A stretch of DNA of 38,711 nt from an uncultured archaeon (GTDB taxonomy: Archaea > Hydrothermarchaeota > Hydrothermarchaeia > Hydrothermarchaeales > CAZSVW01), in NCBI GenBank assembly GCA_965613365.1, contig CBFDVL010000001.1:1-38711 (forward strand), given 5' to 3'. The notes under the pieces are model-generated. The model searched no databases, was not told the DNA's origin, and worked only from the letters and a program-made list of their open reading frames with translations. Positions 3,008 to 31,093 of this stretch are shown here, in pieces (the stretch's first letter is position 1; the number at the start of each line of letters is the position of its first letter). Position numbers and translations under genes: made by a program.

Positions 3008-6000
3008 TTAGCGGAAAGAAAATATTTTTTCTAAAACCTTTCTTTTTCCCTTCGCCTTCTCCAGAATCTCGGGAAGATTCCATACTGGTTTGAGCTTTAT
3101 CGCCTTGGTGGGACATACCTCTTCGCATTTTCTGCAACCTATGCAGAATAGGGCATTGTAGCTTATCTTTCCAAACCCATATGCTTTTTCTTCGGTAACT
3201 ATAACCTTCGCATGTTTTCTTTTAATTTTTTGAATTATCTCTATAAGCATTTTAATTTTTTCAGGTTTTTCTTCCATCGCTTCATACTTTTGCAAGTCTA
3301 TAACGCCAGAAAAAGTTAAGGCATCATCTGGGCAAACTTCTTCACAAGCTCTACATGCTATGCATTTTGTATTATCGCATTCAACCGTTACAAACCCGGG
3401 AAGCTCCTTTCTTTTAACCAAGGGTTCCCATTCTTTATCTATCTCTGTAACCTTAATCTCTCTCGGAGTTACCTTGTAGGATTCAAGAACATCGATAATC
3501 TTTTTAAGTTTCTCAATGTCCTCTCTTTCAAGATTAATATTCCTAATTCTACTCAAAAGTGTTTTAGCTTTTTCATTTTCCAGTAAAGATAGCGTTTTCT
3601 CAAGTCTTGCGAGAATTTCTTCTCGGGAAGGCTCAGATTCATATAAAGCCTTTATCTTAGCTATTTCCTGCTCATCCTTAAAGTGAAGAGCCTGAATAGC
3701 CCCTACTGGACATTCTGCTACACAAGCTCCGCATCCCTTGCAAAGAGCCTCGTTGATTTTTGCCACAATTTTACCAGAGTTATTAATTGTAAGCACAGGC
3801 GCATTGTAAGGACAAGCATCCAAACATACCCCGCAAGCAAGACAAAGTTCCTCATCGACCTTGGCGATACTTCCCTCTGCAATAACCTCTCCTTTAACAA
3901 GAGATATTAATGCGCGAGAAGCTGCTCCGAGAGCTTGGGATATACTATCCTGAATATTCTTTGGAAAGGAGGCAACACCACAAACATATATTCCCTCGGT
4001 GGCAAATTCCACCGGCTTAAGCTTGAGATGCGCCTCAAGGAAAAATCCATTCGCATCTAAGGGAACCTTAAGCATCTTAGAAAGCTCCTTATTTTCTTTA
4101 TGTGGAATTATAGGTGTTGAGAGCACAACTTTATCTACAATAAGCTTGACCTTTCGGTCAAGCGAGGGAGAATAAACCTCAATACTTAGCTTTTCTCCTT
4201 CCTTTTTGACCTCTGGGGGAGAATCTTCGCGGTATCTCAGGAATTTTATACCTTTTTCAAGAGCTAGGGAATAAAGCTCCTCTTCACCCTGACCAAAAGT
4301 TCTTATATCCCTGTAAATTATGAAGACCTCGCTATTGTTGAGATTTTTAATCTCTATCGCATTTTTTATTGCATTATAGCAACAAATTCTCCCACAATAT
4401 TGTCTTTCCTTATCTCTTGCTCCCACACAAAGTATTATCGCATAGCTTTTTTCAACTTTGCCTTTCTTTAATTCTTGCTCAAGTTCAAAAACCGTTATAA
4501 CGTCTTCATACTCTCCATAACCATAATGACCAAAAGGTTTAAGAATTTCTCCTCCGGTCGCTAAGATTATACTACCAACGGTTATTTCCTTATCCCCAAG
4601 CCTCACCTGAAAGTTTCCTACATAACCTGAGATATCCTTAATTGTGGTTGAAGCGTAAATTTCGATGTTTTCATGGTTTTTAACCTTTTCAATTAAAGAC
4701 TTAACAATTTCTTCTCCATTTTTAAGTTCTCTTGCTATTCCTCCAAGCTCTTTCTCCTTCTCCACGAGATAAACCTTAAATCCATGATTAGCTATGCTTA
4801 GAGCACAACTCATTCCCGCTACTCCTCCACCTATTACAAGAGCAGAGGGAGTAACGGGTATTCTGTAATCATGCAAAGGTTCTAACAACCTCGCCTTTGC
4901 TACAGCCATTCTTACTAAATCCTTGGCTTTTTCGGTAGCCTTCTCGGGCTCGTTCGCATGAACCCAAGAGACGTGTTCTCTAATATTGCACATTTCAAAT
5001 AGGTAGGGATTGAGCTTAGCCTCTTTCAAAGTTTTTCTGAAAAGAGCTTCATGCGTTCTTGGTGTGCATGCAGCTATAACAATGCGGTTTAGCTTATGCT
5101 CCCCTATCGCTTTCTTTATCTTCTCTTGAGAATCGATCGAACATGCAAAAAGGCAATCTTCAGCATGCTTTACATAAGGCAAGCTTTTAGCATACTCAAC
5201 CAGAGCTTTGCAATCAACTACGCCAGCGATATTTTTACCACAGTGGCAAATGAACACGCCTATCCTCGGCTCTTTGCTTAGCTCTTTTTCTGGTACCTCT
5301 TTCTCTTCTTCTTGTTTTTTCTCTGGTATGCCAAGAAGCTCGGAAACCTTTGCACTCGCAGAAGAAGCGAGAGCGACAGAATCGGGAATATCCCTCGGAG
5401 ATAAAGCTACTCCGGCTATAAATATTCCCTCTCTACTCGTCTCCATGGGTGAGAGGTCTATGTTTCTGGGCTTGAAAAAGCCGTATTCGTCGGTTTCTAT
5501 TCCCAAAATCTCCGCAAGTTTTCTATTATCCTTGGGAGCAACGAGCGCTGAACTCAAAACTACAAGCTCAACCTCTAACTCCTTAGTCTCGTTGCTCTCG
5601 GTATCCTCGTATCTAAGAATAAGATTGTTGTTTTCTGTTTCTATTATTCTGGAAACCCTGCTTCTTATGTATTTTATGCCATTCGCTTTTGCTTGCTGAT
5701 AATATTCTTCAAAGCCCTTACCATAAGCTCTTAAATCCATGTAAAAAATGTAGCTTTCAAGCTTTGGATTATGCTCCTTGGCTATCATAGCTTGCTTGGT
5801 TGCAAACATACAGCAAACCCTTGAGCAATACTTATTGCATTTAACATCTCTTGAACCTACGCATTGTAACCAAGCTATTTTCTTAGCTTCCCTACCATCA
5901 CTAGGTCTAACCACTTTACCTTGAGTTGGACCACTAGCTGAGAGCAAACGTTCAAATTGTAGCGAGGTTATAACATTTTTATAAACCCCATAGCCATATT

Positions 6001-15926: not shown

Positions 15927-16349
15927 CTAATTTTCTTTTTCATTTTTTAAATAAGAGTTTGCTTTTTTCAAAAGTTTCTTTGAGTTGTTAAATGTTATTT
16001 TCTCTAAAGCTTTCTCAAATGGAAGCCAACAATAATCTTCATGCTCATAAGATAATCTTACCTTTTTTTCCTTTGTTTCTGCAAGATAAAAAACAACTTC
16101 CTTGTAAACCAGATCCTTTCCTTTTCTATAAAAATACGAGATTTTTTCTTTAAAACCTTTCAAAAATTTTAAATCTTCTATCCCCGTCTCTTCTTTTGTT
16201 TCTCTTATTATTGTTTCAATTTCGTTTTCACCTTTTTCTATGTTACCCTTAACAAAATCCCAGTGCCCATATCCATATTTGAGGAGTAGATATTTTATTT
16301 CTTCATCCCTCCTAAAAATAATCACACCTGCAGATTTTTCAACGAGCAT
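15927..16349 (-). CDS. Nudix hydrolase (Ap4A-hydrolase-like size).
   Basis: The Nudix box reads GNIEKGENEIETIIRETKEETGI (Gx5Ex7REUxEExGU). Its start overlaps the helicase stop by 11 nt. Confidence 0.85.
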   Translation of the reverse strand: MLVEKSAGVIIFRRDEEIKYLLLKYGYGHWDFVKGNIEKGENEIETIIRETKEETGIEDLKFLKGFKEKISYFYRKGKDLVYKEVVFYLAETKEKKVRLSYEHEDYCWLPFEKALEKITFNNSKKLLKKANSYLKNEKEN

Positions 16350-18042
16350 GAAATCTCCTCACCTCCTTAGGTATTTCATCTATATCGCAAAGCTCAAGGT
16401 TATGGCTAATTTCATCTGGGAAATACTTAAAGTATTCTATCCTATCATCCAAGAAAACTATGCTTGCTTTGTCTCTCTCACTCCTTATCGCTCTTCCGAT
16501 TGCTTGCTGAACTTTATTAATCATTGGTAATACCCATAGAAGGAAAAATCCTTTGCCATATCCAAAGGCTTCGTCGTAAAGCTCTTTTCTAAGCTCCATT
16601 TCAAAGTTCGGCACGGGAAACGGAAACCCAGCGATTATAATTGTTTTTATTATGCTCTTACCATTTACTACGAATTCTACACCCTCCGAGAGTTTACCAC
16701 CGCAGACAGCCAAAACGAGCTTTTTATCTTTATTTTTAACATTTTTAATAAACATGGGTAGTTCTCTATTCTCTTTTGGTTCTTTGATGCTATAAGGTAA
16801 ATGCTCTGTAACCACGCTTAAAATCTCATAAGAAGGGAAAAAGACTAAAGTGGTTTGGGGAGTAGCCTTATAAATTTCTTCTATAATCTTAGCATATTCT
16901 TCCCAAAGTCTTTCGTTCCTCTGCTCAAGCTTTGTGTTTAATCCTTGCTTAATCCCCATGTATAAACGGTTAGCAATTGGAAATATGCTTGGCATTTCAT
17001 AAGTCTCTGCTTTCTCTAAACCAAAGAGAATCTTATATCCTTCTATTGGCGAAAGCGTTCCGCTCATAAAAAGAAGCTTTCTACATTGCTTTAAGGGCTC
17101 TATAAGCTTAAAGGGAAAAACTGGCTTAAGAAAAAGTCTTTTCTCTTGTCTGAAAAAAATCCAATTTTCATCTCTTCTCAACTTATAAACATTTAAAAGA
17201 AAAGACGCTGTACGAAAGGTGAAAGAAATCTTCTTTCTCTTTAGTATCTCAACTCCCCGCTCGTATAAAGATAAAATCTCATCCAAAGAAACAAAGTCAA
17301 GAAGATTAAGCCTTTCATCTTCTCCCTCAAAAACAGATAAAAAGCTAAGCCTTTGGTTTAATTCCTTGCATGCGAGCTTTACTGTTTTTCTACTTAGACT
17401 TCTGCTCACCAAGTCAAGGTTACTCAGGTTATGGGCTTCATCAACTATAACTAAAAGCTCCTCTAAGCTCTTACCAAGCCTAAGCAAAAAAGTATCTCGC
17501 ATAAAGGGATGAAGCAGGTAATTATAGGAAGCTATTACAACATCGGCGTAAGGCAACAGCTCTTGAAGAATCAGGTAAGGACAGCCATAATTAAATAAGT
17601 CAAAGTTTTCATATTCTCTGCTTAGAGATATTCTATCTGCAAGAAGCTCGATATTGCTTCTAAACTCAAGAAATTTTTTTCTATGCTCGCATTCCTTATT
17701 GAGTTTGCAGAGCTGGGCGAACTCCTCATAGGTAATCTCAGAGCTATATAAAGGGCAGAACTCTTGCTTTGACTTTAAATGCAGAGCCAATAAAGGTTTT
17801 TTGATTTTTTTGGATATTCCAGCAGTTTCCTTCAGGAAGATTCTCGCCTGAGATTTCGTTCTTGTGAGTACCACGACCTTCTCATTACTTAGCCTGTCTC
17901 CAAGAAAACCGCACAGGGAAGCTACTGACTTACCAACACCAGTAGGAACGTCACAAAGCATTACTTCTGAGGTGAATATCCTGTCTATAAGCTCGTCCTG
18001 AAAAGGTCTCGGTTTATACGGAAGATATTCTAAAGCGAGCAT
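16339..18042 (-). CDS. XPD/Rad3 (DinG-family) Fe-S superfamily-2 DNA helicase.
   Basis: Motifs seen: Walker A (DVPTGVGKS), the DEAH box (VDEAHN), four Cys between them (EFCPLY, QLCKLNKEC, YGCPY) in the position of the XPD Fe-S domain, and C-terminal motifs GKLSEGVEF and QAIGRAIR. The ATG is at 18042; an in-frame TTG at 18051 would overlap the herA stop. Confidence 0.8.
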   Translation of the reverse strand: MLALEYLPYKPRPFQDELIDRIFTSEVMLCDVPTGVGKSVASLCGFLGDRLSNEKVVVLTRTKSQARIFLKETAGISKKIKKPLLALHLKSKQEFCPLYSSEITYEEFAQLCKLNKECEHRKKFLEFRSNIELLADRISLSREYENFDLFNYGCPYLILQELLPYADVVIASYNYLLHPFMRDTFLLRLGKSLEELLVIVDEAHNLSNLDLVSRSLSRKTVKLACKELNQRLSFLSVFEGEDERLNLLDFVSLDEILSLYERGVEILKRKKISFTFRTASFLLNVYKLRRDENWIFFRQEKRLFLKPVFPFKLIEPLKQCRKLLFMSGTLSPIEGYKILFGLEKAETYEMPSIFPIANRLYMGIKQGLNTKLEQRNERLWEEYAKIIEEIYKATPQTTLVFFPSYEILSVVTEHLPYSIKEPKENRELPMFIKNVKNKDKKLVLAVCGGKLSEGVEFVVNGKSIIKTIIIAGFPFPVPNFEMELRKELYDEAFGYGKGFFLLWVLPMINKVQQAIGRAIRSERDKASIVFLDDRIEYFKYFPDEISHNLELCDIDEIPKEVRRFHAR

Positions 18043-18047
18043 GATAA

Positions 18048-19562
18048 TCAATCAAAAATATCAATGTTACTTGCTATTTCCTTGATTTCTTCGCTATCCA
18101 TATTTTTTAGTATTCTTTTTAGGTTCGCCACGTTATAATTAAGAACTTCTATTACCGTAGGAATAGGAAGAGCATCTCCCATGGCTAATACATTTCTCGG
18201 AGGCATTGTCGAAACTATTCCTTCCCAAGTGCCTTTATCTGGAACGCCACTAAGCGCTGCAGATACATCGCTTGGTTCTTTTAAGGACATAATAAGTCTA
18301 TTCGCAAGCTGACTTCTTACCTCTTCATCTATCCTCGATGGTCTTTGATCAACCAGAGCTAATATCAAATTAAACTTTCTTGTTTCCCTCGCAAGTTTGT
18401 TAAAAATTGTATGCTGTGCTACCTTCGGCTCGAGGAATTTGTGCGCTTCTTCAAGAAAGAGAATTAACTTAGGAAGATTCTCTTCCTGTCTTGTATAAAT
18501 TGAGTATAACCTTCTTGTTATGATGTTCGCTATGAAAAGATATGAGGTTGTGCTTAGTCCATATTTTCCAAAGTCCAGTACAATGGACTTACCAGCTTTG
18601 ATAAGACTCAGCATTTGGGTAAAGCTGTCTTCAACACCTTCTCTTACAAAATCAAATCTTCTTAGCCTTTCTATTCTCCTCTTCAATGCCAATAAACTAC
18701 TACTATGTATTTTACCTTCATATTCCTCCGGCTCTGCTTCTCTTATAGTAGTTACAAGGTCTCTGCTACCCTTTTCTCTCTCCAGAATATATAAGGCATC
18801 TATCATGCTCTCGGATAAGTCCTGAAAAGCTATTATTATGTCAGAAGGTGTTATCTTACTTTGCTCTATGAAAAAGGGCTTTGCTTCTCTATTAGCTACC
18901 GGATCTAATGCGAATACCTCTACCCTTTCTGGAAAAAAATACTTTAAGCCGGGGGTGTTGTCTGTTTTTGAAAAAAGCCCATACTCTTGGTGCATATCGA
19001 AGATAAGTACATTGCCTACTTCCTTTGCAAGTATCGAGTTGCATACTATTTTGCATAGAATACTTTTACCAACTCCGGTTCTACCAAATATGCCAAAGGG
19101 TTTTTCTGCCAGTTTTCCAAAGTCCAAGTTAACCTCAAAGCTTACTCCACGAAGGTTACCCATCGGCAAAGAGGTTTCATTGGGTATGTAGATTTTCTCA
19201 AGGTCTTCCTTTCTCGCAAGCCTTACCTCCGCAAGATAGGGAGGAATGGTCTCTGGTTCTTTAAGCTCGCCTTTTTCGTTAATAAGCTGAATAACCTTCA
19301 GTTTTGCCATACAGGGAAATAAATTTCCATAGGCTGAGTCATGAGCTTCTATTGGTATCATTTCTTCTTTGCCGATTCCCGCGATTCTTTCTATGACCTT
19401 GGATTTTGGGGTGTAGATATCTTGCACTACGCAGTAAAAATCATATTTTTTGCCTTTCACAATTGTAGGATAGCCTACTCTAAGCTCCTCAGGATTATTT
19501 AATGTTAATTTAACCTCTATTCCCCCAAGCACAGAGGCTGAGATTACTTCTCCAATTTTCAT
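18048..19562 (-). CDS. herA: HerA-type hexameric DNA translocase/helicase.
   Basis: Contains Walker A (FGRTGVGKS) and Walker B (LILFLEEAHKF), and sits directly next to nurA. Confidence 0.85.
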   Translation of the reverse strand: MKIGEVISASVLGGIEVKLTLNNPEELRVGYPTIVKGKKYDFYCVVQDIYTPKSKVIERIAGIGKEEMIPIEAHDSAYGNLFPCMAKLKVIQLINEKGELKEPETIPPYLAEVRLARKEDLEKIYIPNETSLPMGNLRGVSFEVNLDFGKLAEKPFGIFGRTGVGKSILCKIVCNSILAKEVGNVLIFDMHQEYGLFSKTDNTPGLKYFFPERVEVFALDPVANREAKPFFIEQSKITPSDIIIAFQDLSESMIDALYILEREKGSRDLVTTIREAEPEEYEGKIHSSSLLALKRRIERLRRFDFVREGVEDSFTQMLSLIKAGKSIVLDFGKYGLSTTSYLFIANIITRRLYSIYTRQEENLPKLILFLEEAHKFLEPKVAQHTIFNKLARETRKFNLILALVDQRPSRIDEEVRSQLANRLIMSLKEPSDVSAALSGVPDKGTWEGIVSTMPPRNVLAMGDALPIPTVIEVLNYNVANLKRILKNMDSEEIKEIASNIDIFD

Positions 19563-19568
19563 ATTTTC

Positions 19569-20543
19569 TCACCACTCCGAAATCTCATCTAAGTATGTAT
19601 GGTAGGCTCCATAACTTCTGCCTTCGGCATTGGTAATTCCCCCAAGTATCTCATGCAAAGGAATTCCCTTTCTCAAGGCTTCCTCTTTAAACCTTTCCTC
19701 ATAAATCTCTCTGAGCTGGTTTACCTTTATTGCAAGCTTATGAGCTTCAACGAGAGGATAAACATAGCCCAAGCTTAGTTTTGACCTTGCATAACATGAA
19801 AGCTGAGAAAACACAAGCTTAGGAGGAGCTTCGTTGGCTATGTCTATTCTAAACCACCTTGCTTTTGGGAAAAGTCTTGCAAAATAGGCTTTACCATAGA
19901 GAGGGGGCTTACATCTCTTAATAAAACTCTCTGGAAGCTCCACATAACAATAATCTTTATCCTTAGCTTTTCTTTCAAGCAGTTCAACATCCGTTATGCT
20001 ATGATGAAAAGCATGAGTTTTTGAATCCTTCGCAACTCCTATGAGCAAATTTTCATTTTTCTTACATATCTCAAGAATCTTTTTAACTTCTTCATCGAGT
20101 CCTTTTAAAAATGTAGTAGTTAAAGCTCCATCCATTGCAATAATAACATTTTTCTTCTCTTCTGCAATCTTCCTGAGAAGATTAATCTCATACAATCTTC
20201 TCAACTCATTTATTATGAAATTTGGAGTTGCAAAAGGAAAATTGCGTAGCAATTTATCTTGAATGTCGTTCAAAGCTTTATGGGTAGAGATTATCTCTAC
20301 ATACTCCTCTTCTCTTCTGTCTCTCAAATAATACCCATTTTCAAACTCGTATTCTAATGCACATACTCTTATTATGCCTAACCAGAGAGTTGAGACATTG
20401 AATATAAACGTAGCGGAGCCATCTATTGCTATAAGATTTAAAGGTTTTTCACCGCAAGGTTTATACTCGGAAAAATTGACTTCTACGTTGAAATCTTGAG
20501 TTAAACATTCCTTAATCATATCAATAGCTTCATCTAAGTTCAT
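19569..20543 (-). CDS. nurA: NurA 5'-3' nuclease.
   Basis: NurA-like IAIDGS and AMDGAL motifs are present, the size is 324 aa, and the gene sits between rad50 and herA. Confidence 0.75.
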   Translation of the reverse strand: MNLDEAIDMIKECLTQDFNVEVNFSEYKPCGEKPLNLIAIDGSATFIFNVSTLWLGIIRVCALEYEFENGYYLRDRREEEYVEIISTHKALNDIQDKLLRNFPFATPNFIINELRRLYEINLLRKIAEEKKNVIIAMDGALTTTFLKGLDEEVKKILEICKKNENLLIGVAKDSKTHAFHHSITDVELLERKAKDKDYCYVELPESFIKRCKPPLYGKAYFARLFPKARWFRIDIANEAPPKLVFSQLSCYARSKLSLGYVYPLVEAHKLAIKVNQLREIYEERFKEEALRKGIPLHEILGGITNAEGRSYGAYHTYLDEISEW

Positions 20544-22927
20544 CTCAGCACCTCAACTCTTGATTTTCCTTCTTCAGTCATATATACTCTGAGCTTTCCC
20601 TCGAATTTCTCCGCAACCTCTGAGAGATGAGTAATCAATATAATCTTCTCGAAGAATTTTCCCATGTCAAATAACTTTCTGACAAAAAGCTCCCTACTTC
20701 CTTCGGTATCCAACGAACCTAAATCGCCTTCGTCTATGAATAAAGTTTTCATTCTTCCATAACTACCTTTTATACTCGCAAGCTCTTTTGCTATCGCAAA
20801 TCTCAAAGCAGCATTTATCTGCGTTTTTTCACCTCCGCTGAACTCTTGAACATCGTGTGGTATTCCATCTACCCCAACAACTTTTATCTTTATACCATAT
20901 CTGTTGTTGCTTTCATAAGGCGCGAGCTTAACCCTTGTGAATCTCCCGTCGGTTAAATCCATTAGATTTTCAGATGTTTCCCTTGCAAGATTTGGTAAAA
21001 TCTGATTTAGAGCATGCATCACCACACCACGTTTATGAAAAATCTTATCTTTAAGAAGAGAGTAAATTTCAGCATCCTCTCTAAGTTTTTCAAGCTCCTT
21101 TTTTAATTCCTTAATCTCATCTTCGAGTTTCTCTATCTCAGCCTTTTTTCTTTCCAGCTCCTCCTCTCTTACTTTTTTCTCGCCTTTTAATTTTATAAGC
21201 TCGCTTTCTATTCTTCTTTCTTCTCCTTTCAACTCATCAAGCTCTTTTTTGGCTTTATTATATCTTTCTTCAAATTCTTTAAGCTTTTGATACTCTTCTT
21301 CGAGTTCATTTCTCTCTTCTTTTAATTTACTCAGCTCTTCGGCTTTGCTCCTTATTTCCTCATCTACATTTCCTATTTCTCCCAATTTTTTCAATATTGC
21401 TTCAAATTCTCTTCTTTTGTTCTCTTTTTCATGCAGTTTCTTCGAAAGTTCATACAATCTTCTCTCCTTCTCGCTATCAAATCCAAGAGAATTTATTTTC
21501 TGCTCATAATCTTTTATTTTTTCAATAATTTTTAATCTCTCAGATTTTTCTTCGTTTTCTATGATAGAAAGCTCGTTCTTTAACTCTTCGAGCCTTTTTC
21601 TTATTTCAGAGAGAACAAAGCAGTCTTCATTTATTAACTCTATCTTTCTGCTTATTTCGTTAAGCTCTCTTTTTGATTCTTCTTTTTCTCTTATAAGTTT
21701 ATTTATAAGCTTTATATTATCTTTTAACCAAGTAATTTCCTTGTCTATTCTTGTTATTCTCTCGTTTAATGCTCCTTCATTTCTCAATAGAAAGAAAGCT
21801 TCTTCTTTGCTTAGTGTTGTTTTTAGATTTTTGATTCTTCTATTTTCTAATTCTATTTTTGTTAATATGCTCTTCTTTCTATTTCTGTATTTCTGCATCA
21901 ATTCGCTAAGATTCTTTTCATGTATGCTTTTCTCCTTTATTAAGCTCTCCTTCTTCAACTTTATTTTCTCAAGTTTTTCCTTTTCGCTACGAATTTCATC
22001 TATATCTTTTATCTCGTTCTCAAGCTCTTTTTTTAATTCTATTAAGTTTTGTGCTTCTTTCCTTTTGTTTTGAGCTTTTATAAACTCGTATTTTGTCTTA
22101 TCGATAAGCTTAGCCAAATGCTCAAATTTTGTCCTTATTTTTATGAATTCTTCATGTTTTTTGCTCAGAGTCTCGACTTCCTTCTGCTTCTCTTCTATTT
22201 CCTTCTGTTTTTCCTCAAGATTTTTCAGTATTGCAATTATTCTTTTGCTTAAATTTTCTATTTCCTGCTTTCTTCTTGGTATCTCCTCTTTTTCTTTGCT
22301 TAATCTTGATATCTCCCTCTCCAAGAGATTCTCTATTGCCTTTATATCTTCTTTTACCTTTCTTAGCTTTTCATCCGCAAGCTCCTTTGCTTTTTCAAAA
22401 ACATCTAACCTGAAAAGTTTCTGAAAGATTTCTAATCTCTCAGAGCCCTTAGCTGAGCCAAGTTCTTTCATCTCTTCTTGTCTTATAAATGTGGAATTTC
22501 TAAAACCGACATAATCTAAGCCAATAATGTTCTCTATCTCAGCATCAAGCTCCTTGATATTTCCTTCTATGCGTTTTCCGTTCTTTTTTAAAATTAAATA
22601 GGGTTGAGAAGAAAGCTTTATCCCTCTCTCAACCTCATATTCATCTCCATGTGATAAAAACCTTAATTTTACATAACCTCCAGGTTTGCAGACATCTTCG
22701 ATTTTAACTCCAGATAAATCCGTTCTTGAAGTTCTTTTATACAAAGCAAAGGTTATTGCATCCAATATAGAGGTTTTACCAGCGCCGGTTTTTCCAACGA
22801 TCACCATGAACTTTCGGTCAAACTTTATTCTGGTCTTGTCAAGATAACGCATAAATTTGCAAAGCTCAAGCTCCTCTATTATAAACCCGTCTCTGGTTAC
22901 AACTTTGAAGAAATCCTCAAGCTTCAT
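20540..22927 (-). CDS. rad50: Rad50/SbcC-type SMC-like ATPase without a CxxC zinc hook.
   Basis: Contains Walker A (GKTGAGKTS), a long K/E-rich coiled coil, the signature motif (FSGGEKTQ) and Walker B (LFIDEG). Its start overlaps the mre11 stop as ATGA. The protein has only three Cys in total, and none forms CxxC. Confidence 0.85.
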   Translation of the reverse strand: MKLEDFFKVVTRDGFIIEELELCKFMRYLDKTRIKFDRKFMVIVGKTGAGKTSILDAITFALYKRTSRTDLSGVKIEDVCKPGGYVKLRFLSHGDEYEVERGIKLSSQPYLILKKNGKRIEGNIKELDAEIENIIGLDYVGFRNSTFIRQEEMKELGSAKGSERLEIFQKLFRLDVFEKAKELADEKLRKVKEDIKAIENLLEREISRLSKEKEEIPRRKQEIENLSKRIIAILKNLEEKQKEIEEKQKEVETLSKKHEEFIKIRTKFEHLAKLIDKTKYEFIKAQNKRKEAQNLIELKKELENEIKDIDEIRSEKEKLEKIKLKKESLIKEKSIHEKNLSELMQKYRNRKKSILTKIELENRRIKNLKTTLSKEEAFFLLRNEGALNERITRIDKEITWLKDNIKLINKLIREKEESKRELNEISRKIELINEDCFVLSEIRKRLEELKNELSIIENEEKSERLKIIEKIKDYEQKINSLGFDSEKERRLYELSKKLHEKENKRREFEAILKKLGEIGNVDEEIRSKAEELSKLKEERNELEEEYQKLKEFEERYNKAKKELDELKGEERRIESELIKLKGEKKVREEELERKKAEIEKLEDEIKELKKELEKLREDAEIYSLLKDKIFHKRGVVMHALNQILPNLARETSENLMDLTDGRFTRVKLAPYESNNRYGIKIKVVGVDGIPHDVQEFSGGEKTQINAALRFAIAKELASIKGSYGRMKTLFIDEGDLGSLDTEGSRELFVRKLFDMGKFFEKIILITHLSEVAEKFEGKLRVYMTEEGKSRVEVLR

Positions 22928-24102
22928 CTCATAACCTCATTTAAAATTTCAAACCCGTGCTTGAGTATTTCATTCTTCTTTTCATGTTCCGCATAATTTA
23001 GTTCTATAAAGCTTTTGAAAAGCTCTGTTGGTTCCATAGTGTATTCTGCAAATCCTATCTTTTCTTCAGTAGTCTCGTTCCATCTTATTTCATAATAAAA
23101 AGCTTCACTTAGCTTTCTTGCTATTTCAACTTCATCCACAAGCTTTCTTTTTCCCTCAGGCAGCGTAATCTCAAGCCTAAGCAGTTTCTCCTTTAAATCT
23201 GGAAGTAAACTTAATATCTTGGCCGTAGGGTTCTCTTTTTCCTTTACCTCTATGCTTAGCTTTACCATCTCTCGGCATGGTAGCTCTATGAATTTATACT
23301 CCCCCGAGGTATCAACTTCAAGGAAACCCTTTGCATCGCTAAACTCTCCCCAGTCTATCCTTTCTACCGAGCCCGTATAAACGATCTCAGCATTGCTTGT
23401 TCTCAAGCTTTGGTGAAGATGAATATGCCCAAATATTGCGAGATTTACCTTTGGCAGGGCATAAGGCTCAAGTTTAAATTCGCCGGGCAAAACCACAGAG
23501 TAAGAGGTCTCGCTCAACTTAAGCTTGTGATGCTGCACGTAATAATGCCCCAAAAGTATTTTGTTCCCTTCGCATTCCTTTGCTTTTCTTTCAAGCCAAT
23601 TTTTTAAAGTCTGCTGAGCGACCTCATAGGCTTTTTCTCTTGGGATTTCCTTGCCCGTCTTTTCTTCCAACCACGAAACAATCTGCTCTGGATGTAAGTA
23701 AGGTAAAATTATGAAATAATCTTCTCCTATTTTTCTTATGCACGGCTTTCTGAATACTTCAACATGAGGATAGCCCCTAAAATCTTCTATTGATGAACTC
23801 CTCTCATAGTTTCTTGGTTGGTCATGATTGCCAGCGATAATCCATACCTTAATTCCAGCTTTGCCTAAAGGTTCTATAATGTCTCTTCTGACAAGTTCTC
23901 TAAATATAGGTGCAACATTAGGTCTTTCAAATAAATCTCCCGCTATGACAAATAGCTTAGTTTTTTTCTCTATCGCATATTTACATGCTCTTATAAAGTT
24001 CCCATGAATGTCAAGGGCTCTTGCTGATATTCCCGTCGCTATATCTACTTTATAAGGGAAGTTTACCCCCTCATGTATATCTGCTGTTACGATGAATTTC
24101 AT
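22924..24102 (-). CDS. mre11: Mre11/SbcD metallophosphoesterase nuclease.
   Basis: Phosphoesterase motifs seen: ADIHEG, AGDLFE, AGNHD and GHIHLHQ. Confidence 0.85.
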   Translation of the reverse strand: MKFIVTADIHEGVNFPYKVDIATGISARALDIHGNFIRACKYAIEKKTKLFVIAGDLFERPNVAPIFRELVRRDIIEPLGKAGIKVWIIAGNHDQPRNYERSSSIEDFRGYPHVEVFRKPCIRKIGEDYFIILPYLHPEQIVSWLEEKTGKEIPREKAYEVAQQTLKNWLERKAKECEGNKILLGHYYVQHHKLKLSETSYSVVLPGEFKLEPYALPKVNLAIFGHIHLHQSLRTSNAEIVYTGSVERIDWGEFSDAKGFLEVDTSGEYKFIELPCREMVKLSIEVKEKENPTAKILSLLPDLKEKLLRLEITLPEGKRKLVDEVEIARKLSEAFYYEIRWNETTEEKIGFAEYTMEPTELFKSFIELNYAEHEKKNEILKHGFEILNEVMR

Positions 24103-24186: not shown

Positions 24187-25095
24187 ATGGGAAAAAAAGA
24201 GCTTGTTATCATAGGTGGTGGAATCGCTGGTTTAACATCTGCTATCTATGCTTGTAGAAAGGGGCTAAACAATGTTGTTCTTGAAGCTGAGCTACCAATG
24301 GGACAAACTGCCTTAGCACCTATGGTTGAGAATTATCCAGGATTTCCCGAGGGAATAACTGGCATGGAGCTTATGCAGAGAGTAGAGAAGCAAGCAAGAA
24401 AATTCAATGCAGATATTAGAACCTTTGAGAGAGTTACAGAGCTTAACGTGAAAGAAAATTCTTTTATTGTTACTACAAATAAACAGAGCTATGAAGCTAT
24501 TGCTGTGATAATAGCGGTTGGCGCAAAACCGATAAGAATACCAGAAGGGCTTGGAATAAACGAAGAAAAATTTCTTGGCAGAGGGCTTAGTTACTGTGCA
24601 ACTTGTGATGGGCCTTTATTCAAAGATAGAGAAGTCGTGGTGATAGGCGGAGAAAACGAGGCTTTCAACGAAGCTTTATATTTAGCCGAGCTTTGCAGTA
24701 GGGTTACAATAATAACCCAAGATGAAATTAATGCCGATAAAATTCTCATAGACAGGTTTAAGGAAAAAGGAGAGATAATAGAGGGCAAAATAAAAGAGAT
24801 TAGGGGAAAGGACTTTGTTGAAGGAGTAGTTCTTGAAAGTGGAGAAGAGATAAAAGCAAGCGGCGTTTTTGTAGCCCTTGGAAGAAAAACTCCCAGTATA
24901 GAAATCTTTGAGAAGGCTGGAATCAAAACATCAGGAAAGTTCATAGAGGTTAATAGAAAACAAGAAACGAACATCTCTGGCATATTTGCAGCAGGAGACG
25001 TTACAGGATTGCCCTTTCAAATAGCAAAGGCTGTTGGAGAGGCATGTGTAGCAACAATAAACGCTTATAACTTTATTAAACAACACAAACTTTAA
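24187..25095 (+). CDS. trxB: Thioredoxin-reductase-like flavoprotein (CATC active site) with degenerate NADPH-binding motifs.
   Basis: Contains VIIGGGIAGL (FAD) and the redox disulfide CATCDG. VIGGENEAFNEALYLAELCSRVTIITQDEINA occupies the position where E. coli TrxR has GGGNSAVEEALYL...HRRDxxRA. Confidence 0.8.
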   Translation: MGKKELVIIGGGIAGLTSAIYACRKGLNNVVLEAELPMGQTALAPMVENYPGFPEGITGMELMQRVEKQARKFNADIRTFERVTELNVKENSFIVTTNKQSYEAIAVIIAVGAKPIRIPEGLGINEEKFLGRGLSYCATCDGPLFKDREVVVIGGENEAFNEALYLAELCSRVTIITQDEINADKILIDRFKEKGEIIEGKIKEIRGKDFVEGVVLESGEEIKASGVFVALGRKTPSIEIFEKAGIKTSGKFIEVNRKQETNISGIFAAGDVTGLPFQIAKAVGEACVATINAYNFIKQHKL

Positions 25096-25134
25096 ATTGA
25101 AAAAAATAAAATTAAAAAAAGGAGGTGAAAAAAA

Positions 25135-25479
25135 TTGCTTGAGAGAATTCTGGCTGACCTTAATAAAACTCCTGGAATAATAGGAAGTTTAATCTCAGGA
25201 AAAGATGGCCTACCTATTGCTCATGCTGTTCCTCCCGATATAGATGTTGAACTCGTTTGTGCTATGGCTTCTGCTGTTTTTGGAACAAGTGAAAGGTCGG
25301 CGGGAGAGCTAAAGCAGGGTGAACTAGATAGGGTGATGATTGAAAGTGGGAATGGTAAAACTCTAATAGTGGATGCTGGTGAGGGAATTTTAGTAGTTCT
25401 CACAAAACCCGATGTTAACTTAGGATTAATTAGACTTGAAATGAAGCGCGCTTCTCAAGAGATTAAATCACTAATTTAG
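25135..25479 (+). CDS. Roadblock/LC7 (MglB-like) domain protein.
   Basis: The 114-aa pattern is [21 protein letters not shown]...[10 protein letters not shown]...[20 protein letters not shown]. It uses a TTG start at 25135, preceded by GGAGGTG. Confidence 0.75.
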
Positions 25480-25481
25480 AT

Positions 25482-26186
25482 ATGAAACTTCCTAAGTGCC
25501 CCTATTTAGTCAGAAAAGGTGATATTAAAGAGGCTATAGATTATTTTAAAAAAGATAAGTTAATCGGATATGCTAGAGTAGTATCTATACATGAAAACAA
25601 ACTTTTTGATGGAGTTATAATATTTGAAAAAGGGAGAATAGTGCTTTCTTATTTATCACAGGGGAATAAAGAATTCTTTGGGGATTCTGCTCTCAAAAAA
25701 ATAATCGATATCGGCGAAAATTTTACTGTAGAGTGCTTTGAGATGGATGTAGAGAAATTAGAACTTCTAAAAAAGTACTATCCCGAAGCAAGAGTTACAC
25801 GGGAATTAGAGATTCCTCAAGCTTTGCCTTCTCTCGAGAAAAAGGAATTAAGTAGAGAAGAGCTGCTCAAAAAGTATAAAATCCGTGTGCCTACAGAGCA
25901 AGAAATTTCCACCATAATATTAAACTTCTTTGAAATAAATAATCTTGAAAACGATGTCAAAGAAGACATAAAAAGAGAACTCTCACCTTTCGTGGAAAAA
26001 ATGGATATAAACCTTCTTTCTCATGGATATTTCCTTGAATGTGACGGCAAGGTTATAGTGCCTTACCAGAATAAGAATAAAGTAGAAATGATTAAAGAAA
26101 AAATAGAAAATTGCCTGAATAAACTCTCCAATAAACTGGGAATAGAAGTTAAAAATAGCGTGGATATATTAATAGGGGGTAATTAA
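25482..26186 (+). CDS. Hypothetical protein with a DUF4388/PATAN-like N-terminal region.
   Basis: KGDIKEAIDYF...GYARVV...GVIIFEKGRIVLSY...FGDSALKKII...FTVECFE resembles the DUF4388 pattern as I recall it (G.L..., tG.L.v, G.i.f..G.iv.A, G.eAl..ll, f.f). The start lies 2 nt after the Roadblock stop. Confidence 0.5.
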   Translation: MKLPKCPYLVRKGDIKEAIDYFKKDKLIGYARVVSIHENKLFDGVIIFEKGRIVLSYLSQGNKEFFGDSALKKIIDIGENFTVECFEMDVEKLELLKKYYPEARVTRELEIPQALPSLEKKELSREELLKKYKIRVPTEQEISTIILNFFEINNLENDVKEDIKRELSPFVEKMDINLLSHGYFLECDGKVIVPYQNKNKVEMIKEKIENCLNKLSNKLGIEVKNSVDILIGGN

Positions 26187-26187
26187 A

Positions 26188-26289
26188 ATGATTGAATGCC
26201 TAGCTGCAGTTGCATATATAGCACAATATGATGTTGTTTTTAAAGAATGTAAAAACAAAAAAAAGTTGCCGAAGAAATGGTGGCATTGA
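26188..26289 (+). CDS. 33-codon leader ORF ending in or after an A8 run; possibly the true 5' part of the next gene.
   Basis: The ATG follows GGGGGT by 8 nt and lies 1 nt after the previous stop. The ORF contains A_AAA_AAG (26259-26265) in the phase needed for -1 slippage into the 26277 frame. Confidence 0.3.
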   Translation: MIECLAAVAYIAQYDVVFKECKNKKKLPKKWWH

Positions 26290-26774
26290 ATATCATAAAA
26301 TCAGGATTTGACATTGGCGAGAGGATGAAACAGGAAGAATATTCCTCTTTTGAGAAGTTTCTCGAAAAATTTAATAAAGATGCAACAAGCCTAAATAAAA
26401 TAGAGTACTCTACCGAATATTTTGGAAATGGAATATTTGTTAGAAGTGTGTGTGATTTCGACTTAGCTATAAGTGACTGGATGAGTCTCTATGGCTCATT
26501 GCCAGAATGGCATGACAACGTTATCAAAGAACTCAGAAAGAGAGGAATACCAGTCATATGCATGCTCTGCGGACTTCATCAAGCATTGAGGCAGAAAATC
26601 GGAGAGAAAACTTTAATAAATAAAAGACCATGCAATGTCTATCATTTAGCCTCAAGAGACATAGAAGGAAATAAATATTATCAGGAAAATCTTGATAAAA
26701 AAGATAAAAAGGAACTTGAAAAATTGCTTGATGAATATTCGTGTATATTCTACTTCTATCCAAAAACAAGGTGA
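26277..26774 (+). CDS. Hypothetical protein, possibly a divergent V4R-like Cys protein.
   Basis: A 165-aa ORF co-oriented within the cluster. VICMLCGLHQAL...C is faintly V4R-like. The frame is open from 26253. Confidence 0.5.
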   Translation: MVALNIIKSGFDIGERMKQEEYSSFEKFLEKFNKDATSLNKIEYSTEYFGNGIFVRSVCDFDLAISDWMSLYGSLPEWHDNVIKELRKRGIPVICMLCGLHQALRQKIGEKTLINKRPCNVYHLASRDIEGNKYYQENLDKKDKKELEKLLDEYSCIFYFYPKTR

Positions 26775-26780
26775 TGATAT

Positions 26781-27206
26781 ATGGAGTTTCTGCACAGATT
26801 AATAATTGGGTTCTCTGCGGGAATTGAAAAGGTCATGGGTTCTGGAGCGCAAGCCGCGACAAACATCGCTGGCTATTATGCCGGCATGGAACTTGGAAAA
26901 GAGCTTCTTGAAAGAGAGATAATCTCCCAAGAAGACTCTGAAGAGGATATTATATCGAGGGTTTTGGATACCTTAAACCTTGCAGGAAACATAGAACTAG
27001 AAAAAAAAGAAGATAAGATAGAGATAACTGTTACAGAATGCCACATATGTCCAAAAAGAGTCGGAAAATATCCTCTGCAATATACCGCATGTCCTGTAGG
27101 TGGGATGCTTACAGGACTCTTGGACCTCGTGAAAGGAAGAAAAAGACAGAGACTTTTCATGAACCTCAAGGGGGGTGAAATCTGCAACATAGAAGTAAGG
27201 ATTTAG
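26781..27206 (+). CDS. V4R (4-vinyl-reductase) domain protein.
   Basis: The C-terminal part reads ITVTECHICPKRVGKYPLQYTACPVGGMLTGLLDLV...GGEICNIEV, matching the V4R Cys/Gly pattern. Confidence 0.65.
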   Translation: MEFLHRLIIGFSAGIEKVMGSGAQAATNIAGYYAGMELGKELLEREIISQEDSEEDIISRVLDTLNLAGNIELEKKEDKIEITVTECHICPKRVGKYPLQYTACPVGGMLTGLLDLVKGRKRQRLFMNLKGGEICNIEVRI

Positions 27207-27214
27207 AAAAGGAG

Positions 27215-27700
27215 ATAAAGATAGTAGTCCTTGGGAGACATAACGTCGGAAAAACAACGTTCTTAGAGAGTTTGTTGGGTAATATATTAAAGGTAGAGCA
27301 TAATGGAGATACCATTTCCTTGGATTATGGAAGGCTGAGAATAGGTGACAAAACGTTACACTTCTTTGGAACTCCTGGTCAGGAAAGATTCGAAATTATA
27401 AGAGATGTAATAATGAGAGGAATGCAAGGAGCTATTCTTGTTATCGATTCTACTAAGGGAATAGGAGAGTTCGAAATAAAATTATTAAGAAAACTTAAAA
27501 AAGAAAAAATACCTCTGGTGGTTGCATTAAACAAGTGGGACTTAAATAGCAACCTCAACGTAGACCACATTCCAGAATTCAGAGGAATTAAAGTTATCCC
27601 TATGATAGCCACAAAAGGCATAGGTATAAAAGAAGTAATTACCTCCCTAATTAAATTTTTTATAATTATGAAAGTTAAGAAAAAATTAAACCGGAGATAA
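27215..27700 (+). CDS. Small MglA-like/COG2229-type Ras-superfamily GTPase; start codon unresolved.
   Basis: G1 is VVLGRHNVGKTT (27224-27259), G3 is FGTPGQERF (TxxGQ as in MglA) and G4 is NKWD. The first canonical start in frame (TTG at 27272) lies after the P-loop. The upstream in-frame stop is at 27176. Only ATA (27215, 27221) or CTG (27182) are available, and AAGGAG lies at 27209-27214. Confidence 0.7.
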   Translation: MKIVVLGRHNVGKTTFLESLLGNILKVEHNGDTISLDYGRLRIGDKTLHFFGTPGQERFEIIRDVIMRGMQGAILVIDSTKGIGEFEIKLLRKLKKEKIPLVVALNKWDLNSNLNVDHIPEFRGIKVIPMIATKGIGIKEVITSLIKFFIIMKVKKKLNRR

Positions 27701-27703
27701 TTT

Positions 27704-28477
27704 ATGGTTCGTACTATAACCATAGCTTCAGGAAAAGGAGGAACGGGAAAAACCACAATTGCTGCAAACTTAGCTATAGCGCTTGCAGATATAGGTATAA
27801 AGGTATGTGTTTTAGATGCCGATATTGAGATGGCTAATCTTGAGCTTATTTTAGGCATGGAAAATAAGAGGATAACCCTCCTAGATGTTCTTGCTGATAG
27901 AGCCGATATAAAAGATGCAATATATATTGGTCCAAAAAGCGTCCTAGTTATTCCAAGTGGGATAAGTCTAGAAAAATTAAGAAATGTTGACCCCGAGAAA
28001 CTTAAAGATGCAATTAAAAAAATTATTGATGTTGCCGAGATTTTTATTATTGATGCTCCTGCTGGAATAGGAAAAGATACTCTTATAGCTATATCTAGTG
28101 CAAGAGAATGCTTACTTGTTGTGAATCCCGATATTTCTTCGCTTTCTGACGCTCTTAAAACCAAAATAATCGCCCAGAGACTCGGAAGTGAGATAATAGG
28201 AGCTGTACTCAATAGAGTAGAGGAAACTACGGGGAAGCTTACTGCTCAGGAGGTGTCAACAATACTTGAGGTACCTGTTATGGGCGTGGTTCCTGAGGAT
28301 AAGAATGTGAGAAGGGCTGGTATATACGGAGAGCCTCTAATCTTGAGATATCCTAACTCTCCAGCGTCTGTGGCTATTAAAAAACTTGCTAGAAAGATGG
28401 CAGGATTACCAGTAGAAGAGGAGAGAGAAAAGAGGAGCGTAATTTCAAAATTGCTCGGTGGTCTTTTAAGAAAATAA
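27704..28477 (+). CDS. minD: MinD/ParA-family ATPase with a C-terminal amphipathic tail.
   Basis: Contains the deviant Walker A SGKGGTGKTT, the IIDAPAG Walker B region and the basic/hydrophobic tail SVISKLLGGLLRK. Confidence 0.85.
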   Translation: MVRTITIASGKGGTGKTTIAANLAIALADIGIKVCVLDADIEMANLELILGMENKRITLLDVLADRADIKDAIYIGPKSVLVIPSGISLEKLRNVDPEKLKDAIKKIIDVAEIFIIDAPAGIGKDTLIAISSARECLLVVNPDISSLSDALKTKIIAQRLGSEIIGAVLNRVEETTGKLTAQEVSTILEVPVMGVVPEDKNVRRAGIYGEPLILRYPNSPASVAIKKLARKMAGLPVEEEREKRSVISKLLGGLLRK

Positions 28478-30904: not shown

Positions 30905-31093
30905 TCTATGAGAAATAGGCGAAACGGTTAAATAATTAATTCCTATACTATTTGATAGTAATCTATTGTAAATAATAGTTATGGTGAGAAGTTTGGATAA
31001 AGAGTTCGAGAAGATGAGCCTTGTTGAAAAATGGCGATATCTCAACAAAAAGATTAAAGAGGTAGATGAGAGAGTAAAGGAAATTGAAGAGAA

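Follow-up and report, generated by a model that had tools for sequence, protein, structure and literature searches.

A hydrothermarchaeal gene cluster that brings an MglA-family GTPase and an archaeal MinD together with Roadblock and DUF2226 proteins

The 38,711-nt stretch of DNA analysed here (the window), from a metagenome-assembled genome of an uncultured archaeon of the Hydrothermarchaeota, carries on its plus strand a cluster of six genes, g1 to g6 (positions 25135-28477), which encode in this order a Roadblock protein, a DUF2226 protein, a Cys-rich protein of an undescribed family, an MJ0207-family protein, an MglA-family small GTPase and an archaeal MinD ATPase (Table 1). On balance, the cluster probably combines two related P-loop NTPase switch sub-modules, with Roadblock and DUF2226 as their shared components. 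Sub-module A would consist of an archaeal MglA-family GTPase, with a GTPGQ motif and no intrinsic Arg finger, and a Roadblock/MglB protein, joined here also by DUF2226 and the four-cysteine MJ0207 protein. Sub-module B would unite an archaeal MinD bearing a predicted amphipathic tail with one or more Roadblock proteins, DUF2226 and the Cys3His family to which g3 belongs. The first is of a known kind; of the second, and indeed of any association between MinD and Roadblock proteins, we found no description in the searchable literature.

The evidence for sub-module B lies in a second locus, L113, which belongs to a distant archaeon and was found via a distant DUF2226 relative (P0012). Here a tight operon encodes a multi-transmembrane (TM) protein, a g3 homolog, two successive Roadblock proteins and an archaeal MinD; 134 nt away and transcribed divergently lies the gene for the DUF2226 paralog, P0012. 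The g3 homolog (203 aa) matches over 168 residues (BLASTP E 4e-18), the two Roadblock proteins match with E-values of 4e-15 and 5e-10, and the MinD, which is 42% identical to that of the window and ends in a basic-hydrophobic tail, scores 296 bits against TIGR01969. This MinD gene and the Roadblock genes are translationally packed (gap of 0 nt, overlap of 11 nt). Across the 116 related loci compared (1.49 Mb), neither a TIGR01969-like MinD nor a full-length g3 occurs without the other, and the pair is confined to the window species and L113, two distant lineages that both have Roadblock and DUF2226 as well; the rare full-length g3 is found only beside MinD. An earlier note on this DNA had placed MinD and the other five genes in one module, and the L113 operon makes a link of MinD to part of this gene set real beyond the window genome. 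The GTPase module of the genome that contains L113 sits apart, at L011, and the two sub-modules, separate in that genome, are best read as merged into one co-oriented cluster in the window.

The 288-aa product of the first gene in the L113 operon (4000-4866, minus strand) combines at least four TM-like segments with a soluble domain at its C-terminus. None of the other loci compared encodes a homolog, and the protein could be a membrane anchor or a cargo of that system.

A link of MinD to the GTPase is not seen in other genomes. We scanned GTDB species genomes with the GTPase family as anchor, which gave 80 loci (36 archaeal and 44 bacterial), and annotated all open reading frames (ORFs) in them with hidden Markov models (HMMs) of the window genes. 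A MinD or ParA homolog within 10 kb was found in 0 of the 36 archaeal and 0 of the 44 bacterial loci; a Roadblock gene lay on the same strand within 1.5 kb in 21 of the 36 archaeal ones. Nor does minD adjoin the module in the nearest relatives (L004-L012) or in the Methanococcales loci. The link between GTPase and MinD proposed in the earlier note is thus not borne out. That note had taken a lack of conserved linkage between the GTPase and Roadblock genes and minD as telling against its proposal; such linkage is indeed lacking for the GTPase, and it is present for Roadblock, in L113. Two MinD candidates were set aside: a ParA-like match in L100, which by eye looks to be of the CooC type and matches the MinD profile weakly (E 2.5e-7), and a KGGTGKT fragment at the edge of L020, which is 47 aa long, lies on the opposite strand and is too short to classify.

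Taken by themselves, the GTPase-anchored survey, the nearest relatives and the junction between g5 and g6 would make MinD appear an incidental neighbour. In that alternative, which we consider rather unlikely, g1 to g5 alone are the functional unit, an MglA/MglB-type switch with lineage-specific accessories; MinD, independent of them and with a promoter of its own, came to lie beside them by rearrangement; and L113 is a separate system that shares common archaeal families. The junction speaks for it. A TATA-like element, TTTTTTATAAT, lies 45 nt 5' of minD, a distance as at g1, and is kept downstream of the GTPase stop codon in L111 and L108. In L111, from a sister strain, the GTPase ends 30 nt earlier and the spacer between GTPase and minD is 32 nt. 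The 3-nt gap between g5 and g6 is specific to the window strain, because a 1-nt insertion there (an extra T at 27666/27667 relative to L111) extends the GTPase; as a result the element (TTTTTTATAATT) falls inside the g5 frame in this strain only, and the last ten codons of g5 (MKVKKKLNRR) are strain-specific read-through. The gene order of relatives also shifts right after the GTPase, where L004 has aconitase genes. Three observations oppose the incidental view: the confinement of full-length g3 to loci with MinD, the translational packing of MinD with Roadblock genes in L113, and the fact that the clade without minD beside its cluster (L004) has also lost the central domain of g3, of which an in-frame 55-aa remnant with N- and C-terminal segments only is left.

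Sub-module A, for its part, recurs in other lineages, with differing accessories. In L004-L007 the order is thioredoxin reductase, Roadblock, DUF2226, g3 remnant, MJ0207 and GTPase, followed by the aconitase genes; in L010 and in L011/L012 it is Roadblock, DUF2226 and GTPase. The Methanococcales loci L013 and L109 (Methanocaldococcus and Methanococcus) carry a paralog of H2-forming methylene-tetrahydromethanopterin (H4MPT) dehydrogenase (HMD), the GTPase and Roadblock, and a pairing of DUF2226 with Roadblock is seen, weakly, also in Methanothermococcus. Methanococcus maripaludis carries both a GTPase-Roadblock pair and DUF2226 together with a Roadblock-like gene. In an Altiarchaeota contig (L034) a fusion of a KaiC-like domain and the GTPase is followed by Roadblock and DUF2226. 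MJ0207 is followed by Roadblock in all eight metagenome loci of anaerobic methanotroph (ANME) type that have downstream DNA, and then by a fused GTPase in all six that reach far enough; the linkage of MJ0207, Roadblock and GTPase is found also in L030 and L054. Reading frames of more than 330 codons occur in 24 of the 36 archaeal GTPase-family members, and in the six long ones that we read (about 390 aa) an N-terminal domain that by eye is KaiC/RecA-like, with a degenerate Walker A motif, is fused to a GTPGQ GTPase; the idea that these extensions are a fused DUF2226 was dropped on that appearance, no family search having been made with them.

Several further features of these loci were seen in passing. 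Many GTPases of about 390 aa that by eye are of this fused kind are spread across L029-L050, L054, L059, L073 and L099-L105, with a Roadblock gene nearly always adjacent. L110 has the HMD paralog and the GTPase, and no Roadblock gene was called there. A gene of the MJ1341_C family adjoins the GTPase-Roadblock pair in L013 and L109 and lies about 4 kb off in L110; hhalign was negative for its being a Methanococcales equivalent of DUF2226. A conserved protein of about 200 aa, unrelated to g3, is encoded convergently to the GTPase in L010 (1578-2186, minus strand) and L011 (8428-9027, minus strand) and weakly matches methanogen output domain 1 (MetOD1), below threshold, with E 0.002-0.012.

The window cluster itself is no assembly artefact, because the locus recurs in the independent assemblies L001-L003 (99.8-99.96% identical); the 98%-identical sister strain carries it too (L096, L111 and L112), and proteins identical to the cluster products bear the NCBI locus tags DRN88_00645 to 00660 and DRN88_04965. 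All six ORFs lie on the plus strand at the coordinates first given for them, as the earlier note had it. They are closely spaced: 2 nt between g1 and g2, 1 nt between g2 and the leader of g3 described below, 6 nt between g3 and g4, 3 nt between g5 and g6 and, between g4 and g5, either a gap of 14 nt or an overlap of 25 nt, depending on whether g5 starts at the ATA at 27221 or the CTG at 27182. A thioredoxin-reductase-like gene adjoins the cluster upstream, and gyrB converges on it from downstream. The TATA-like element TTTAAATT, which overlaps the stop codon of the thioredoxin reductase gene, is a candidate archaeal promoter for the cluster, although the window is AT-rich and each of its strands has about 3.2 TATA-like strings per kb. 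Bacterial-type promoters and terminators were no more frequent than in shuffled sequence, and that scan is uninformative for an archaeon.

Table 1. Features of the g1-g6 cluster, with positions in the window
Feature	Position	Strand	Basis or remark
TATA-like element TTTAAATT	25091..25098	+	pattern scan; 44 nt 5' of g1 start
g1, Roadblock/LC7 (MglB-type), 114 aa	25135..25479	+	Pfam Robl_LC7; TTG start after GGAGGTGA
g2, DUF2226 protein, 234 aa	25482..26186	+	Pfam PF09987
g3, Cys-rich protein, 194 aa, undescribed family	26188..26774	+	single gene, broken in window strain
A8 homopolymer disrupting the g3 frame	26257..26264	+	A6 in sister strain; A8 in window, L001, L002 and L003
g4, MJ0207 family (PF27343), 141 aa	26781..27206	+	precomputed match
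g5, MglA-family small GTPase	27182..27700	+	frame open 27179-27700; small_GTP TIGR00231, E 4.9e-20
g5 G1, GRHNVGKT	27233-27256	+	fits P-loop GxxxxGK[ST]; aligns with N-termini of 20 homologs
g5 G3, GTPGQ	27368-27382	+	within FFGTPGQERF
g5 G4, NKWD	27530-27541	+	canonical [NT]KxD, as in groups 1, 4 and 5
TATA-like element TTTTTTATAATT	27656..27667	+	45 nt 5' of minD ATG; putative promoter
g6, archaeal MinD ATPase, 257 aa	27704..28477	+	TIGR01969
g6 deviant Walker A, GKGGTGKT	27731-27754	+	fits KGGxGK[ST]
g6 C-terminal amphipathic tail SVISKLLGGLLRK	28436-28474	+	predicted membrane-targeting

At the two ends of the cluster the family assignments of the earlier note hold. g6, called a MinD-type ATPase there, scores 342 bits against TIGR01969 (cutoff 201.75), and its closest solved structure is A. 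fulgidus MinD-1 (1hyq, E 4.7e-79). The hydrophobic moment of its tail is 0.54, a value that 7% of shuffles reach. A Pfam HMM scan found no match to MinC or MinE in any cluster protein. g1, called Roadblock/LC7, passes the Robl_LC7 model (PF03259) with E 7.9e-17 and 61.2 bits (gathering cutoff 23); its closest solved structures are the Asgard Roadblock proteins 7f8m and 7yh1 (E 1e-13), followed by CvnB5 (E 1.4e-5) and LAMTOR2. It carries a K-D-G pair, and a D-G pair is conserved in the MglB partners of MglA groups 2-5 (PMC4316618).

g2 passes PF09987 (DUF2226) with E 5.4e-18 and 65.8 bits (gathering cutoff 22, residues 11-220), and is made up of an N-terminal beta/alpha domain (residues 1-105), a conserved REELLKKYxI helix motif and a C-terminal ferredoxin-like alpha/beta domain (residues 125-234). 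The relatives of this family are highly divergent: 26 proteins were found at E <=1e-3 among 1.8 billion representatives. The earlier description of g2 as having a DUF4388/PATAN-like N-terminus fails as a family assignment, the protein being DUF2226 and giving no DUF4388 (PF14332) HMM match itself, and survives as a remote resemblance: 10 of the 26 DUF2226 members show sub-threshold DUF4388/PATAN matches (best E 1e-4, 22.8 bits against a cutoff of 25), which suggests that the N-terminal domain is remotely PATAN-like. The AlphaFold2 model of g2 (predicted local distance difference test, pLDDT, 88) has two domains, the C-terminal of which matches, in a Foldseek search of the PDB, the C-terminal domains of MamM and other CDF proteins and EscJ (E 1e-3 to 1e-2); no PATAN-domain protein is among the PDB matches of the model, and PDB sequence searches with DUF2226 gave no meaningful matches. 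A MinE-like domain, hinted at by a 21-bit sub-threshold match in one relative (P0023) that was not reproduced, was rejected because profiles of the family and of its C-terminal region returned no MinE from the PDB and the model matched CDF C-terminal domains and EscJ.

The GTPase g5 fits the MglA family of the GTPGQ type. In the alignment of its family FGTPGQERF is nearly invariant (F, T, G, R and F invariant; G, P and Q nearly so), as are LNKxD and a standard P-loop. The G2 region of g5 reads G-D-T-I-S-L-D-Y-G, with Asp and not Arg before the invariant Thr, and the family consensus is GTTVALDYG. MglA groups 2-5 have a GTPGQ G3 motif, with Gly for the Asp of DxxGQ, and no Arg finger in G2 (T-T), and group 4 is exclusively archaeal; group 1, the Myxococcus type, has TVPGQ and an intrinsic Arg finger in G2 (PMC4316618). 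By sequence g5 would belong with groups 2-5, and its archaeal origin is shared with group 4; with GTPGQ in place of TVPGQ and D-T in place of R-T it does not qualify for group 1. The nearest named homologs are Methanococcales GTPases (41-47% identity). Of the earlier call of an MglA-type GTPase with a TxxGQ G3 motif and NKWD, the family and NKWD stand, and the G3 motif had been mis-registered and is GTPGQ.

The start of g5 must be non-canonical to judge from the reading frame, in which there is no ATG, GTG or TTG ahead of the P-loop: it is either the CTG at 27182 (the NCBI call, 172 aa) or the ATA at 27221 (159 aa). Automatic gene calls of 131-141 aa leave out the P-loop. The position homologous to the ATA is GTG in L004 and ATA in L108, from another species. 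The segment from this ATA to the first canonical start, 17 codons that include the P-loop, is translated; a comparison between species shows 9-10 synonymous and 2 non-synonymous codon differences in it.

For g4 the earlier note had proposed a V4R protein. The protein identical to g4 in L001-L003 has a precomputed match to PF27343, 'MJ0207', at E <=1e-5; the Pfam copy that we scanned, which lacks PF27343, gave no match to g4, V4R included, and neither g4 nor ten relatives match the V4R HMM (PF02830) even at E <=10. There is no sequence or profile match to the PDB. What can be kept of the V4R proposal is a modest resemblance of fold. In a Foldseek search of the PDB with the AlphaFold2 model of g4, built on a two-sequence alignment and with a pLDDT of 65, matches over the full length are confined to subunits of TRAPP, Bet3 among them, and to V4R domains, those in PoxR, MopR and DmpR (TMq 0.5-0.61, E 0.2-3), headed by Bet3 (2j3t_A; TMq 0.61, probability 0.85 and a non-significant E of 0.23). 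The modelled fold is thus consistent with, and no proof of, V4R/Bet3. Four cysteines of g4 are invariant (C87, C90, C104 and C135). A Cys-rich Zn site is present in Thor-TRAPPC3 and PoxR (PMC10933270), and by analogy the four cysteines more likely form a structural Zn site.

In the window g3 appears as two ORFs, a 33-aa 'leader' (26188-26289) and one of 165 aa (26277-26774). The leader is the true N-terminus of g3, because the N- and C-terminal parts share one frame in L004 and the sister strain has intact 194-aa alleles (one frame in L096, L111, L112 and P0170). The earlier note's call of an uncharacterised Cys protein holds, with its real 5' end at the leader ORF: HMM scans assign it to no family, and a PDB sequence search gave no meaningful matches. 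Cys88, Cys127, His130 and Cys185 are invariant, also in the L113 homolog. The frame is disrupted in the window by an A8 run. Relative to the 98%-identical strain g3 has a ratio of non-synonymous to synonymous differences (pN/pS) of 0.20 (8 synonymous and 7 non-synonymous differences) and is under purifying selection; the A8 allele is therefore either very recent or decoded by slippage. The leader frame reads A_AAA_AAG (26259-26265) in register, and a -1 slip there could restore full-length g3 from the A8 allele. The notion that g3 is a paralog of g4, and so a second V4R-like protein, found no support, with an hhalign probability of 0.2% both for g3 alone and for its family alignment. By eye the Cys-bearing elements of g3 and g4 look similarly ordered, despite that negative result.

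On another account, which we regard as improbable, this clade is losing the cluster, which would be partly non-functional in the window strain and whose gene order would carry no functional message. The A8 frameshift in g3, the want of an ATG, GTG or TTG start for the GTPase and the extra T that alters the GTPase C-terminus all fit it, and so does erosion among relatives (L004 10725-11780 and L008 3866-4885): the reduction of g3 to 55 aa, the frameshift near the C-terminus of the GTPase in L004-L007 (with the remainder in another frame, IIPELQGVEVVPMVATRGIG) and, in L008/L009, a truncated DUF2226 and a fusion of g4 and g5 by deletions. Selection, on the other hand, is acting: pN/pS is 0.04-0.20 for g1-g3 between the window and the 98%-identical strain (0.10 for g1), and relative to L004 pN is far below pS. 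The P-loop segment has changed mostly at synonymous positions, the non-canonical ATA position is common to the window and L108, the intact g3 is common in the population (194 aa in five of the nine members of its 90% cluster), and all G motifs and MinD motifs are intact.

Several points weigh against reading the cluster as two joined sub-modules. The set of MinD, Roadblock, g3 and DUF2226 is found in two independent lineages only, and a possible third, L108, consists in three codons (M-A-R) that follow the GTPase at the end of a contig (ENA FORT17 scaffold_312681). The closest relatives keep Roadblock, DUF2226, MJ0207 and GTPase with no minD adjacent. With a TATA-like element of its own and the 32-nt spacer in the sister strain, minD may be transcribed separately; given the g3 frameshift and the non-canonical GTPase start, some components may be inactive or poorly expressed in the window strain. 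Finally, the V4R/Bet3 fold of g4 is drawn from a model with a pLDDT of 65 and from Foldseek E-values that are not significant.

If the two-sub-module reading is right, its parts could be assigned roles as follows. A Roadblock dimer would bind the nucleotide-loaded NTPase and set its rate of hydrolysis or exchange, as MglB does for MglA; DUF2226 would serve as a PATAN-type adaptor; MJ0207 would be a metal-binding accessory subunit for the GTPase, and g3 the same for MinD; and MinD would provide ATP-dependent membrane binding and position a cargo. The comparison shows which genes are present, their families, purifying selection on them and the return of each sub-module in other lineages; we infer the protein-protein interactions in this scheme, as we do any regulation of MinD by Roadblock and any cross-talk between GTPase and MinD. 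A bolder form of it, which is speculative and which we think unlikely, would make Roadblock dimers, DUF2226 and g3 the regulatory partners of archaeal MinD, in the role of MinE or MinC, wired in Hydrothermarchaeota to an MglA-type GTPase through the shared Roadblock and DUF2226, so as to give a dual-NTPase polarity or positioning machine. If true, no earlier example would exist of an ATPase of the MinD/ParA class under the control of Roadblock-fold proteins.

The earlier note had suggested a ligand-gated switch that controls MinD-dependent localisation, a model borne out in part only. Spelled out as a chain, a V4R-like g4 would sense a small molecule and set the GTPase via Roadblock, and the GTPase would control MinD. 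We found no direct support for this linear pathway, to which we give little credence. Every component does lie in one co-oriented cluster in the window species, the fold model of g4 resembles the ligand-binding V4R sensors PoxR, MopR and DmpR as well as Bet3, and MJ0207 is tied to Roadblock and GTPase in the ANME-type contigs. MJ0207, however, travels with Roadblock and GTPase and not with MinD: among the loci examined, neither it nor the GTPase is ever found with MinD outside the window species, and the genome that has both systems keeps them apart (L011 and L113). Moreover, g4 has no V4R HMM match, and its cysteines are better explained by a structural Zn site.

Among the closest known systems is MglA/MglB of Myxococcus xanthus and Thermus thermophilus, with which sub-module A shares a Ras-like GTPase adjoining a Roadblock/LC7 gene, a G3 motif without the canonical Asp, an NKxD G4 and the Roadblock D-G pair. 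Sub-module A differs in that its GTPase is not of group 1, lacking TVPGQ and the Arg finger, and M. xanthus MglA and MglB are weak matches (E 3.5e-7 and 0.5). Koonin and Aravind (2000) reportedly proposed Roadblock proteins as NTPase regulators. The actinobacterial conservon (CvnA-D) is likewise a multi-gene operon with a third subunit of unknown function. Its CvnD-type GTPases share FGTPGQERF (a scan with this pattern also brought up Streptomyces loci, and the motif type is present in many Chloroflexi proteins), and CvnB belongs to the Roadblock proteins (E 1.4e-5 between CvnB5, 3leq, and g1). In contrast, the window GTPase has a canonical NKWD where the G4 of group 2 is NxFD (PMC4316618), its accessories are DUF2226, g3, MJ0207 and MinD, and neither the CvnA histidine kinase nor CvnC/DUF742 has a match in the six cluster proteins or the upstream thioredoxin reductase.

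The MinD proteins of archaea oscillate and place the machinery for motility and chemotaxis, and we know of no MinE- or MinC-like partner for them. g6 is a bona fide archaeal MinD, like Haloferax volcanii MinD4 and MinD2 and the proteins of the A. fulgidus and Pyrococcus structures, with a predicted amphipathic C-terminal tail like that described for MinD4. The MinD4 paper reports che and archaellum neighbourhoods, not Roadblock, whereas g6 sits with Roadblock, DUF2226 and g3; according to that Haloferax study, MinD4 must depend on another patterning system. The Dip system of Haloferax, described in a preprint (PMC13228585), consists of the GTPase DipA, the DUF2073 (SepF-like) protein DipB and the Zn-ribbon protein DipC, and positions the divisome. 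It too is an archaeal small-GTPase operon, and it oscillates and positions machinery in place of bacterial Min. DipA, however, has DTPG and an N-terminal amphipathic helix where the window GTPase has GTPG, its partner is DUF2073 and not Roadblock, and Dip is without MinD; it is also reported absent from Methanococci (PMC13228585), to which the closest named homologs of the window GTPase belong. The G3 motif, the Roadblock and DUF2226 partners and the lack of a DUF2073 match thus rule out that the cluster is a Dip system.

With TRAPP (Bet3 and longin subunits, a guanine nucleotide exchange factor for Rab), Ragulator/LAMTOR-Rag and the Asgard Roadblock/TRAPPC3 proteins the cluster has in common the conjunction of a Cys4 protein of Bet3/V4R fold, a Roadblock protein and a small GTPase, a likeness of folds only, in which that of g4 is predicted. 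The best structural matches of g1 are Asgard Roadblock proteins, with LAMTOR2 among the others. The window GTPase is of MglA type, not Rab or Rag, and such genes, reported as non-operonic in the cultured Asgard archaeon (PMC10933270), are operonic in the window and in the ANME-type contigs.

Elsewhere in the window, the archaeal gene set for DNA-end resection is complete at positions 16339-24102 (minus strand; DEAD_2 helicase, HerA, NurA, Rad50 and Mre11); this cluster is transcribed divergently from the thioredoxin reductase gene that precedes g1, and L004 has the same synteny. In L111 (7421-7964) a 69-aa gene and a PIN-domain gene, a VapBC-like toxin-antitoxin pair, lie between an HxlR-family gene and the gene for the replication factor C (RFC) large subunit; the counterpart in the window is a 45-nt spacer (31049-31093). 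A search for an anti-phage defence system with PADLOC gave weak, generic P-loop matches only.

In their 2014 survey, Wuichet and Sogaard-Andersen described group 4 mglA genes as having no conserved neighbours (PMC4316618). DUF2226, MJ0207 and KaiC-like fusions recur, in contrast, beside GTPases of the window type, and the cluster extends that survey. It also links a Bet3/V4R-like protein (on the predicted fold of g4), a Roadblock protein and a small GTPase at the operon level outside Asgard, which bears on the origin of TRAPP- and Ragulator-like GTPase regulators. Should the link to MinD be incidental, what is left is one more module of MglA/MglB type, new but otherwise ordinary. As it stands, the recurrent set of MinD, two Roadblock proteins, DUF2226 and a Cys3His family names concrete candidate partners for archaeal MinD.

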